Source: Candidatus Aenigmatarchaeota archaeon (GTDB lineage: Archaea; Aenigmatarchaeota; Aenigmatarchaeia; CG10238-14; SCSR01). From it: a stretch of 20,602 bases of DNA. Where the stretch lies: positions 1-20,602 of the forward strand of contig JAWBTW010000012.1 of NCBI GenBank assembly GCA_039000165.1. The letters run 5' to 3'. Below are positions 6,001 through 9,000 of this stretch, one piece after another. The position numbers are program-made. Within the stretch, counting starts at the first letter, position 1. Every line of letters starts with the position of its first letter.

Positions 6001-9000
6001 AGCTTCTTTATTCTCAGGGATTTTTATAGGAATTTTTGGCCCGAACTCAGTTTTTATACTCTCTTCTTTCTTCCAGTTTGCCTCTGCTTTAATCGCTTCA
6101 AAGATTAGGAGCTAATCTTTCTTAGAAAATTTACAAATGAGTTCATGCTGAGCTAAACCTATGTAAATGGGTTTACCACAATACTTACAAATTCCTTCTG
6201 GTTCTGGCAAATCTTTTTCTGCCATAGGTGTCTAAACCAGGAATTGCTCCTCAAATTCTTTCAAGTATTGAACTGATTTTTTAACATCAGAGAAGAGTTT
6301 TTCCACATAGGCCACATGTTCTTTCTCAATCTTTTCTGATTTTTTCTCCTTTGCTACTTCATAAGCAGGGGCTATTAGCTGAATGGCATACCTTAAGCTT
6401 GTTTTTGCTCCTATTTCTGTTAGGTACTCTAGAGCCTCTTCGCTAATTTTTATCTTTTCTGATTTTGCTCTTATCTCTATAATCTTTTTAATTTCATCCC
6501 TTTGATAAGGTTTTGTGTTTATTATCAATAGTCTATCAAGCAAGTCCAAAGGCATTCCGTGGGCAGCTTTTACATCAGTCCCTCTTATAGTTGAAAACCC
6601 TCTATTAGTTGCAAAAATTATAATTGGAGCAAGCTCTTGTTCCAGAGCACGGTTGAGAAAGGCGAAAGTTTCTATATCAAGCATGCTACACTCATCTATA
6701 AAAACAACCCCAGGCAATAATTCGCATTTTCCTTCCTGAACTAAGTTTTTAATGTATTCGTCAACTTCCTTTCTTACTTCTGGTTCAATTTCTTTTGATT
6801 CCCTTCCCCCAAAGAATAGACTGAAAATGTCACTGCCAGACCTTGAGCTTGCTACATCTAAAGCATGTAAGGTTACAGGATAGACGAATTCTTTTTCTTT
6901 CAAAACCTTTCCTTTGGGTATTGGTACAGTTCTTTCTGTAGTTAAATCAACTTTCCTTTCTTTTGCCGCTTCTTCGCTTATTCCCAGCTTAACTATTCTT
7001 CCTCCTTCAACATCAATCTGGATAATATCGCCTGTTTCCACACCTTGCTGAATTAGCTGAATCGCAAAACTTTGATCCATAGTAAGCTTTTTACTTTCAT
7101 CTTTTGTTGCGATTTTAATCGTTGCCCCAACTGGAATTTGCTGGTAAGGATTGTAAGGATGCTGAGCTTTTTCTATGCTTATTTCTTTCACTTCACCTTC
7201 ATAAATTTTCCTCATCTCATGAATTCTTGCTCCTATAGCTTTTCTTAAAGTTTGGGTTAGAAACTCTGTTTTTTTCATTTCTGTAGAGAAAATCTCGCTT
7301 GCAGCTAAAGGAACAAAGGGAACGTCATGCCCTAATTCTTTTGCTATAGCCATCGCAATAGCAGTTTTTCCTGTGCCCGGAGGACCAGCTAACAAAACTG
7401 CCCTTCCTGCAAACTTTCCTTCTTTTATTAGTCTAACAACTAAGCCTGCAGCCTCTCTAGCTTCTGTTTGACCAACCATCCCTTGAGCTATAGGCTTAGC
7501 TTTTAAACCTTCTAGACCTAAGCCTTGAATGTGAGAATGTGCTGCTATCCTTTCCCACTCGCGAAGAGACTCAGGAATTTCGGCTATTTCAGCCAAAATT
7601 CCTCACCTCTCAACTTCTATATTAAGAATTCCGTTCTTAAATTCTTTTTTGGTAATGGAAGCGTCAGATGGTATAGGAATCAACTTAAAGTAAGCCTTAT
7701 CTCCTGCAAAAGCTTTAACCTCGATGCTTTGCTCAAGCTTTTTAACTTCAATATCTTCTTCTTTCACATCAGGAAGCTTTATTTTTATTATTTGTTTGTT
7801 CCCTATTTTCTCTATTTTTGCTTCAGGCTCCTCTGTAACTTTTGGTACTCTAATTTTTTTCTTTTCAGGCTCTTCTCGAATTTCTTCTACTTCTTCTACA
7901 GCTGGTTTGATTCCGAGTCTTCTTTTAATCTCAGGCTCTATTTTTTTGTAATCTCCACTTGTTTTTACTTCAATTTTTGGTTCCCTTCCGCTTACTGAAT
8001 GGATTGTGATGCTTATTCCTCCTCCTTTAATTCCTGGTCTAAACTTGATTCTTGGTAACTCAAACCCAAACATTTTGTCTATTCTTTCAAACTCTTTATC
8101 TATATCCTCGAATATATCAAAAATTCTGACTTCCCTTCCTTTTTCTTTAAGCCTTTCTCCACAGATTGGACAAAACTCCCATTCGTCCTTAACTTTTTCC
8201 CCGCAGCTTGGACATTTTTTTCTTTCAAACATTTTTTGACCTACTTAAAATTTTTCTGAATAATTTAAATTGTTTTACTCTACTTTTATTTCTTTTCCTT
8301 TTTTCTTTTCCTTCTTTGGCAATCTTATAGTTAAAACTCCTTTGTCCATCTCTGCCTTTGCTTTTTCGTAATCAACAGGAACTGGTAAGGTAATTACTCT
8401 TCTCAAAGCTCCGAACTTTCTTTCAGCTCTGTAGATTTTTTCTGTTTTTTCAATTTTTTTCTCTTTATGCTGGGCAGAAATTTCTAGAGTATTTTCTGTA
8501 GCTCTTACTGTTACATCGCTCTTGTCAAAACCTGGTAAGTCTGCTCTTACTATTATTTCCTCTTCAGTTTCTGAAATGTCTACAGGAAATGTTTCTGCAA
8601 AAAACTCTTCACTTGGAAGCCTTTCTAGTAATTGTCTCATTCTCCTTCTCATTCTTTCCAGTTCTTCAAAAGGATCCCAATAATCCCAAAAGACCATTTT
8701 TTTCACCTCAGTTAGTGTTTAAATAACCTAAAAAATATAGCATTTAGGGGTTTAAATATTTTTCGGTCCATTTTTTGCTAAAGCAAATTGCTAAAACAAA
8801 CTTTTTATTTGAGTTTAATTAAAATTAAAGACATGGTAAGCATTTTATTCATGCTTTTTGGTGTAATAGATTTGTTAGGAGGCTTAGCTTTAACTTTTGG
8901 TTCAGTTTCATTTCTTCCTCAAATAGCAAAGTATGTGGGAATTATTCTTATAGCAAAAGGACTTTGGACGATAATAACAAGTATTATCCACTAACCTAAA

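Follow-up and report, generated by a model that had tools for sequence, protein, structure and literature searches.

Evidence for an old transfer of a TIP49/RuvBL ATPase gene from an Aenigmarchaeal lineage to a clade of Brockarchaeota

The window, i.e. the whole stretch of 20,602 nucleotides analysed here from a Candidatus Aenigmatarchaeota genome (G000), contains a gene for an AAA+ ATPase of the TIP49/RuvBL family, preceded on the same strand by two genes of small heat-shock type. The features of the locus are the following:

6232..7596, minus strand: TIP49/RuvBL AAA+ ATPase, 454 aa, intact and without intein
7603..7609, minus strand: GAGGTGA, a ribosome-binding-like site by sequence reading, which overlaps the stop of the upstream gene and lies 6 nt before the TTG start of TIP49
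7603..8232, minus strand: protein with a zinc ribbon and an alpha-crystallin domain (small heat-shock-like), 209 aa, Pfam Zn_ribbon_3 5.2e-9
8275..8706, minus strand: canonical Hsp20, Pfam HSP20 2.2e-21
8718..8765, minus strand: A-rich stretch with two TTTAAA boxes, read by eye

The preliminary description had presented the first gene as a full-length TIP49/RuvBL AAA+ ATPase with a Pfam E-value of about 7e-138, and this was borne out. The TIP49 domain is matched at residues 16-366 (E 6.7e-138, 460 bits) and the TIP49_C lid domain at residues 372-437 (E 7.4e-26, 90.5 bits), so that both the P-loop and the lid domains of the family are present and the full length of the protein is covered. Residues 9-452 align continuously to human RuvBL1, including the middle domain (DII), which is inserted between Walker A and Walker B. 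The protein carries the motifs HSH, GPPGTGKT, VFIDECS, ATNRG, DLLDR and SLRY, among which we take the Walker A and Walker B motifs, the sensors and the arginine finger to be represented; in 32 aligned TIP49 rows H20, H22, K77, D301, N331, R355 and R402 are invariant and E302 is nearly so. The ORF can thus be regarded as a true member of the family on the basis of its sequence. The eukaryotic RuvBL1/RuvBL2 (Pontin/Reptin, Rvb1/2; PDB 2c9o, 5oaf) match it over the full length (E 1.6e-124) and share its three-domain layout and catalytic motifs; they differ in that they form a pair, while a single TIP49 was found in G000, and in that Walker B reads DEVH in RuvBL1 and DECS in the Aenigmarchaeal-type clade.

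The gene directly upstream of TIP49 codes for a protein related to archaeal Hsp20 (NCBIfam NF041800; Sulfolobus Hsp20.1), with which it has the C-terminal alpha-crystallin domain in common, but it adds an N-terminal zinc ribbon, with four invariant cysteines, and a conserved middle segment. Its NF041800 match (E 1.6e-7, 31 bits) lies below the cut-off of 140, and it thus falls outside that equivalog. In the predicted model the alpha-crystallin domain has a pLDDT of about 90, and its best fold match is the alpha-crystallin domain of Sulfolobus Hsp20.1 (PDB 4rzk, E 2e-6). A reading of this neighbour as a PIH1-like partner of an R2TP complex was considered and found no support: small heat-shock proteins gave the best fold matches and a CS domain appeared only at rank 50. 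The fold search, which covered this neighbour only, identified no partner of PIH1 or RPAP3/Tah1 type, and its alpha-crystallin fold is unlike the known subunits of the RuvBL1/RuvBL2 R2TP.

The position of the GAGGTGA site suggests translational coupling of TIP49 with the zinc-ribbon gene. The Hsp20 gene, which adjoins the other two in only part of the relatives, likely starts at the ATG at 8697, 5 nt behind another GAGGTGA, and the A-rich TTTAAA stretch is a possible archaeal promoter of a three-gene unit. A sigma-70 promoter scan, the model of which excludes archaeal promoters, gave 7 matches against 6.5 in shuffled sequences; a terminator scan gave no signal above shuffles, and no tRNA was found in the window.

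The zinc-ribbon gene is a recurrent neighbour of TIP49. Counted by genome, 45 Aenigmarchaeal genomes carry TIP49 and three of them are cut by contig ends; in 24 of the 42 that can be assessed the zinc-ribbon gene lies within 1.1 kb upstream, and in the other 18 this linkage is absent. The linked cases are spread across a ladder of branches in the Aenigmarchaeal tree, and the gene also precedes TIP49 in three genomes outside the order of the query and in a Micrarchaeales locus. The zinc-ribbon gene itself occurs in 70 of 91 genomes of the order, many of which lack TIP49; in two genomes (G020 and G085) a second copy sits beside TIP49, apart from the other one. Outside this group an alpha-crystallin gene beside TIP49 is rare, being found at 5 of 174 distinct distant loci, for which flanks of mostly 1.2-1.5 kb were covered. 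The zinc-ribbon small heat-shock gene travels with TIP49 among DPANN genomes.

Archaeal TIP49 (arCOG04081, K07472), the family to which the query belongs, is widespread and unevenly distributed: it was detected in 158 of 301 Thermoproteota, 20 of 61 Hadarchaeota and 27 of 201 genomes from the phylum of genome G807, and in one of 251 Nanoarchaeota genomes sampled, that one being the centre of the search. Among 251 genomes of the query's phylum, 40 contain a whole TIP49 P-loop domain and five more a gene broken by a contig end or an intein; this separate sample matches in kind the 33 full-length copies in 201 genomes counted before. The statement that the gene is common in its order and rare elsewhere in the phylum holds for the contrast (33/83 inside the order, plus 4 broken, against 7/168 outside, plus one broken); "common" needs to be qualified as patchy, since families f3, f1 and f2 have it in 14/14, 18/50 and 3/15 genomes, respectively. 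A scan with a pattern built on an alignment of varied TIP49 sequences returned 80 matches, 79 of which were unrelated P-loop proteins and one a Nezhaarchaeota TIP49.

Sequence comparison sets the Aenigmarchaeal-type proteins apart from other archaeal TIP49 as a separate clade, which is also distinguished by its linkage to the zinc-ribbon gene. The query is 75-96% identical to copies from Aenigmatarchaeota, 80% to that of Haiyanarchaeum, 78% to one from Micrarchaeales and 74% to one from Nanoarchaeia; against 90 other Thermoproteota loci identity is 47-62%, the exception being one copy from Methanomethylicia (L038) at 70%. Identity to the Brockarchaeota copies is 79.7-82.7%, about the 81-83% reported earlier for a "Brockarchaeota-like" group. 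That label proved apt, as genomes deposited as Thermoproteota, Thaumarchaeota, Nitrososphaerota or uncultured fall in one class with a record deposited as Brockarchaeota.

The earlier claim that the Brockarchaeota sequences branch inside the Aenigmarchaeal ones was reproduced with wide outgroups, a site-heterogeneous model and bootstraps. The rows added comprised 90 Thermoproteota loci (from the 301-genome sample with 158 positives), 25 from the phylum of G807, 20 from Hadarchaeota, and further ones from Thermoplasmata, Thermococcus, the Archaeoglobi side, Geothermarchaeota and one Njordarchaeota; duplicates and rows with fewer than 300 matched residues were dropped. In the bootstrapped LG+C20 PMSF tree of 47 rows the Brockarchaeota clade has support 100/100 and is enclosed by nodes of 100/98, 96/98, 95/89, 99/97 and 99/93, whose remaining rows come from Aenigmarchaeota and further DPANN archaea, with one Methanomethylicia row in addition at the 99/93 node. 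The same nesting was recovered in a quick C20 tree of 87 rows and in a FastTree of 318 distinct rows. Placing Brockarchaeota outside all 27 DPANN rows is worse by 90.8 log units (p-AU 5.3e-4), under a constraint that also excludes L038 and was chosen after the trees were seen. The recipient is nested with support within the donor group in an outgroup-rooted tree, as expected for a transfer from a symbiont to another lineage. The sister of the Brockarchaeota clade is a polytomy-like set of four rows (G020, G205, P0014 and P0019), with the partial G205 protein 82.7-86.8% identical to the Brockarchaeota copies; the branch of the query lies elsewhere. These are single-gene trees, and around the query their coverage of Aenigmarchaeota is far denser than that of donors that the sampling may have missed.

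The Brockarchaeota class comprises 26 genomes, all of one order, and TIP49 is present in 15. In a tree of ribosomal proteins L3 and L4 from 25 of these genomes, the one left out being without L3, the gene occurs in 15 of the 16 members of one clade (SH-aLRT 100), the exception being a genome of 0.6 Mb, and in none of the 9 genomes outside it; the unplaced tenth is without TIP49 as well. At their base the Brockarchaeota TIP49 sequences divide as the species do, and between the two sides L3 is 77% identical and TIP49 91%. Thus, an identity of 80% to the query looks recent because TIP49 evolves slowly here. At 12 loci synteny is kept: genes for pyrroline-5-carboxylate reductase and an ABC transporter precede TIP49, and those for a dual-specificity phosphatase and HMG-CoA reductase follow it. 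The GC3 of TIP49 at 12 Brockarchaeota loci is 0.35-0.57 and tracks the flanks, which speaks against both mis-binning and a fresh transfer; at 4 Aenigmarchaeal loci it is 0.09-0.27. Synteny, GC3 and agreement with the species tree identify TIP49 as truly resident in the recipient genomes. Its confinement to one clade, the agreement of the trees and the ameliorated GC3 indicate one old gain followed by vertical descent.

The Brockarchaeota copies all come from metagenome bins, several of them from the same springs, and they might be Aenigmarchaeal contigs assigned to the wrong bin or owe their position to compositional attraction. We judge such an artefact to be very improbable: the contigs reach 438 kb with a synteny of their own, GC3 follows the flanks, the gene tree follows the species tree, and the identity of 80% stands well apart from the 47-62% of other TACK copies.

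The direction of the transfer requires a separate argument. The Aenigmarchaeal ladder could itself have arisen by several acquisitions from a TACK or stem-Brockarchaeota donor that is extinct or missing from the sample, or the gene could have reached both groups by way of another organism or a mobile element. Indeed, families f3, f2 and f18 each fall in two places of the TIP49 tree, so many Aenigmarchaeal copies were themselves acquired, and in the accessible part of Data Set S3 of Li et al. (2021, mSystems; PMC8407114) TIP49 of five Aenigmarchaeal bins is scored as acquired, with Methanosarcinales, i.e. a euryarchaeal group, as best donor. In the tree the nearest neighbours of the Aenigmarchaeal clade are copies from Hadarchaeota and Thermoplasmata, and in line with this an earlier uptake by Aenigmarchaeota may have come from that side. 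Such a reversed or indirect route is nonetheless quite unlikely in our judgement, given the AU test, the lack of TIP49 in the ten class genomes outside the recipient clade or unplaced, and the fact that no mobile-element genes were found among the Brockarchaeota neighbours scanned. Moreover, a full-length zinc-ribbon heat-shock gene was not found in any of five Brockarchaeota genomes: a linkage kept in DPANN that has no copy in Brockarchaeota supports the proposed direction and suggests a common function, and repeated donation from Brockarchaeota is disfavoured because TIP49 would have landed each time behind a gene absent there.

The transfer postulated in the preliminary description, from symbiont to TACK archaea, is thus upheld as one from an Aenigmarchaeal lineage to Brockarchaeota, by the widely rooted site-heterogeneous tree and the AU test. 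It is real and rooted, old and single; tree, synteny and GC3 are observed, and the direction is an inference. An Aenigmarchaeal lineage related to, but distinct from, that of the query would have given TIP49 once to the stem of one Brockarchaeota clade, where the gene would have been fixed between the ABC-transporter locus and the dual-specificity phosphatase gene and inherited vertically since.

The claim that the relationship had not been reported does not stand. In the accessible part of Data Set S4 of Li et al. (2021; PMC8407114), bins JZ-2_2 166, 141 and 121, of class ex4484-205, are entered as putative partners in interaction for the Aenigmarchaeal bin JZ-2_2 245, with TIP49 at 71-72% identity as the sole basis of the pairing; EX4484-205 corresponds to Brockarchaeota, according to the portions available of PMC11094006 and PMC11216029. 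The gene and the pair of lineages are the same as here. As far as the accessible material of that study goes (PMC8407114), the comparison was by BLAST only and the case was called "recent HGT" with neither tree nor direction; its main text argues for one Aenigmarchaeal-to-Theionarchaea transfer, of TFIIB, and contains no match for TIP49, RuvB or Brock. The present analysis adds to the accessible account (PMC8407114) the direction, the age, the recipient clade and a second gene. The accessible text of PMC8065059 has no match for TIP49. Among the main texts searched, and the supplements of PMC8407114, the only ones covered, we found no other report of this transfer, none of an intein in TIP49 and none of a link between TIP49 and heat-shock genes in archaea; the nesting of CTP synthase, the heat-shock linkage and a putative intein jump would be the new elements.

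The second gene, CTP synthase, would have been acquired in Aenigmarchaeal form on the same Brockarchaeota stem. The query protein is 67-71% identical to that of 13 recipient-clade genomes (three have no match), 46-54% to five other genomes of the class, 68% to two and 73% to a partial one; with other Thermoproteota identity is 49-57%, with three at 65-68%, among the matches listed, to which 45 weaker ones add. In a quick C20 tree of 34 rows, which are those closest to the query, a choice favouring Aenigmarchaeota, the recipient clade groups with P0252 (98) and then with G093 of family f1 (96), within a node of SH-aLRT 95; further trees gave the same place, and the AU test rejects a position outside the rest (p-AU 2.5e-6). 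The sister differs from that of TIP49, where it is the set of G020, G205, P0014 and P0019. Thermoplasmata, three other Thermoproteota and another Brockarchaeota branch also nest among the Aenigmarchaeal CTP synthases. CTP synthase raises the odds of a real past contact, although it has also spread to other lineages.

Comparison of 781 ORFs of G000 with 1.19 Mb (54%) of the 2.2 Mb Brockarchaeota genome G253 gave 133 matches with a median identity of 39%, three of which reach at least 70%: TIP49 (81), a pyrophosphatase piece (72) and CTP synthase (71). Deoxyhypusine synthase stands at 66% in this comparison. Against 0.39 Mb of the control G316, a single partial genome, there were 85 matches and none of at least 70%. 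The H+-pyrophosphatase, with an adjoining P-type ATPase (69-72% and 61%), was evaluated as specific to the pair and rejected; the block is common to Bathyarchaeia, and the Brockarchaeota copy nests inside them.

Inteins were found in some TIP49 genes. One is 82% identical between a Methanomethylicales copy and an Aenigmarchaeal-type copy, suggesting that it jumped between them; the most recent exchange observed involves, therefore, a lineage other than Brockarchaeota. The intein in the Brockarchaeota TIP49 of G281 groups with Aenigmarchaeal-type inteins (93/96).

Transfers are usually read as going from host to symbiont, and to our knowledge no host of Aenigmarchaeota has been established. The recipient clade might be the present or long-time host of f1 Aenigmarchaeota, genes having flowed from symbiont to host by cell contact. 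In its favour, TIP49 and CTP synthase both branch within one Aenigmarchaeal order and were both gained on one Brockarchaeota stem, the three matches of at least 70% with G253 have no equivalent in G316, the G281 intein is of Aenigmarchaeal type, both groups are recorded from the same springs and dates, and an Aenigmarchaeon-ex4484-205 pairing is listed in the accessible supplement of Li et al. (PMC8407114). We nevertheless consider a host relation of this kind rather unlikely. The event is old, the recipient subclades being just 77% identical in L3; TIP49 of this clade has also entered two Nanoarchaeota, one Micrarchaeales and Methanomethylicia, and CTP synthase the Thermoplasmata, Thermoproteota and second Brockarchaeota branch mentioned above; the third outlier, the pyrophosphatase block, is found in Bathyarchaeia as well; the latest exchange seen is the Methanomethylicales intein; and the genome comparison has one partial control. 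In addition, no co-occurrence partner is given for bin JZ-2_2 245 in the accessible material of Li et al. (PMC8407114). Hosts are recognised there, in the accessible text, from a transfer that is recent and restricted to a single donor and a single recipient (PMC8407114), while the present event predates the radiation of the recipient clade, in which L3 identity at the deepest level is 72-77%, is ameliorated and has several unrelated recipients. The "candidate host link" is accordingly unsupported in the form first proposed, the more so as the clade of the query is not the sister of the Brockarchaeota copies. As the same TIP49 clade also occurs in Methanomethylicia and in further DPANN phyla, it is a sign of a common gene pool more than of one particular pair. 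The clade has moved often between hot-spring and vent archaea, and the gains by Brockarchaeota would record repeated old contact in shared springs. TIP49 is thus a weak host indicator: the transfer suggests past close contact, and a host relation is possible.

As regards function, archaeal TIP49 is the ancestor type of eukaryotic RuvBL1/2, which are known from the INO80, SWR1 and R2TP complexes. By homology, the sole TIP49 of the query would form a homo-oligomeric ring like RuvBL1/2, hydrolyse ATP and act as an ATP-driven assembly or remodelling chaperone. It is probably co-expressed with the zinc-ribbon small heat-shock protein in these Aenigmarchaeota; this protein, often together with Hsp20, would hold unfolding clients, to be remodelled or released by the ring, and the Brockarchaeota enzyme would work without the zinc-ribbon partner. 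A search for DnaK in G000, a genome 91.6% complete, gave no match, and a limited disaggregase and chaperone activity is described for RuvBL1/2 in the accessible part of PMC10067754. Such a chaperone ring with handover of clients is a tentative proposal, to which we give somewhat less than even odds. About as likely is a role on nucleic acids or RNPs, namely TBP interaction, chromatin or DNA remodelling or box C/D sRNP assembly as for INO80/SWR1/R2TP, the heat-shock neighbours reflecting stress co-regulation or chance. All solved relatives are RuvBL1/2, the middle domain of the query is whole, and TIP49 persists without a heat-shock neighbour in most archaea, all of which fit the latter role; against it, the pair has stayed together over several transfers that crossed the borders of orders and phyla, and two Methanomethylicales loci (L195 and L202), which are among the five distant ones noted above, independently have an Hsp20 gene immediately before a TIP49 that shows only 52-54% identity.

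Taken as a whole, the data are best explained by an old Aenigmarchaeal gift of TIP49 to the Brockarchaeota stem, a reading to which, together with the more tentative chaperone-type role of the protein, we assign a probability of roughly 0.7. A more far-reaching picture, which we hold to be unlikely, would make the Brockarchaeota clade a long-time host of f1 Aenigmarchaeota that was reshaped by its parasites, DPANN archaea both gene donors and a relay between hosts, and TIP49 with its zinc-ribbon heat-shock gene a travelling module retaining an ancestral RuvBL role in proteostasis without DnaK. If this were true, the recipient clade would have gained TIP49 and exchanged its own CTP synthase for that of the symbiont, and examples of the relay would be the passage of CTP synthase into Thermoplasmata and Methanomethylicia and of the TIP49 intein to or from Methanomethylicales.

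The case provides a rooted and tested transfer outward from a symbiont, fixed in a whole TACK clade and accompanied by a second gene. It also illustrates how a BLAST cut-off of 70% mislabels old transfers as recent, and it names pairs for probing, Aenigmarchaeota with Brockarchaeota for old contact and with Methanomethylicales for recent contact. Finally, the heat-shock linkage offers a testable lead on the function of archaeal TIP49.

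Three further genes in the window are listed here with their coordinates and strands.

5570-6115, plus strand: MFS transporter of half length (181 aa), from profile search
9010-9176, minus strand: short ORF following ribosomal L44e, below the ORF list cut-off
10352-11686, minus strand: single ORF with matches to the profiles of both the small and the large primase subunit, each of them weak, from profile search

The length of the transporter is conserved in L001, L008 and L016. The product of the short ORF resembles ribosomal protein S27e. The ORF matching both primase subunits is probably a PriS-PriL fusion, a kind of primase that occurs in DPANN archaea.

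In two Methanomethylicales loci (L195 and L202) an Hsp20 gene lies on the same strand, 4-12 nt upstream of TIP49; this arrangement is an independent linkage of TIP49 to a small heat-shock protein. The full zinc-ribbon heat-shock gene is found in both TIP49-bearing Nanoarchaeota, G256 (L011) and G257 (L017); it is not adjacent to TIP49 in either genome, and in G256 the two genes are 25 kb apart. Two copies of TIP49 are present in each of G258 (L038, L138), G449 and G413: one of the G258 copies is of the Aenigmarchaeal type and the other groups with the second copies of G449 and G413. The Aenigmarchaeal TIP49 L131 (G059), which is 48% identical to that of the window and groups with a second Hadarchaeota type, has a separate origin.

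A LAGLIDADG intein, inserted within the Walker A motif of TIP49 between K and T, is scattered across archaea; no description of it was found in one literature search. It occurs in the following sequences.

L137 (G281), L136 (G146), L134 (G203), P0090 and P0121-P0131: TIP49 with the Walker A intein

The inteins of P0122 and P0126, one from a Methanomethylicales TIP49 (extein 52% identical to the window protein) and one from an Aenigmarchaeal-type TIP49 (extein 90% identical to L002), are 82% identical, compared with mostly 55-65% among the other inteins inserted there, and group at 100/100 in the tree. P0122 lies on a contig that belongs to no bin, and its presumed taxon is that of the extein. 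These values point to a recent jump of the intein between the two lineages.

Other genes of the window's genome (G000) have counterparts elsewhere.

C15, 12597-17692: H+-pyrophosphatase adjoining a P-type ATPase (L529)
C17, 3881-4978: deoxyhypusine-synthase-like protein
C5, 55270-56889: CTP synthase (L531)

The H+-pyrophosphatase/P-type ATPase pair is also present in the Brockarchaeota genome G253 and at two Bathyarchaeia loci; a second, near-identical but partial H+-pyrophosphatase of G000 lies at a contig end. The C17 product, which we take from its sequence to be deoxyhypusine-synthase-like, shares 66% identity with a G253 protein, and its gene is a candidate for a further exchange. In trees of L531-type CTP synthases, Thermoplasmata, three other Thermoproteota and two Brockarchaeota branches nest among Aenigmarchaeal sequences, and for this gene the Aenigmarchaeota look like a hub.
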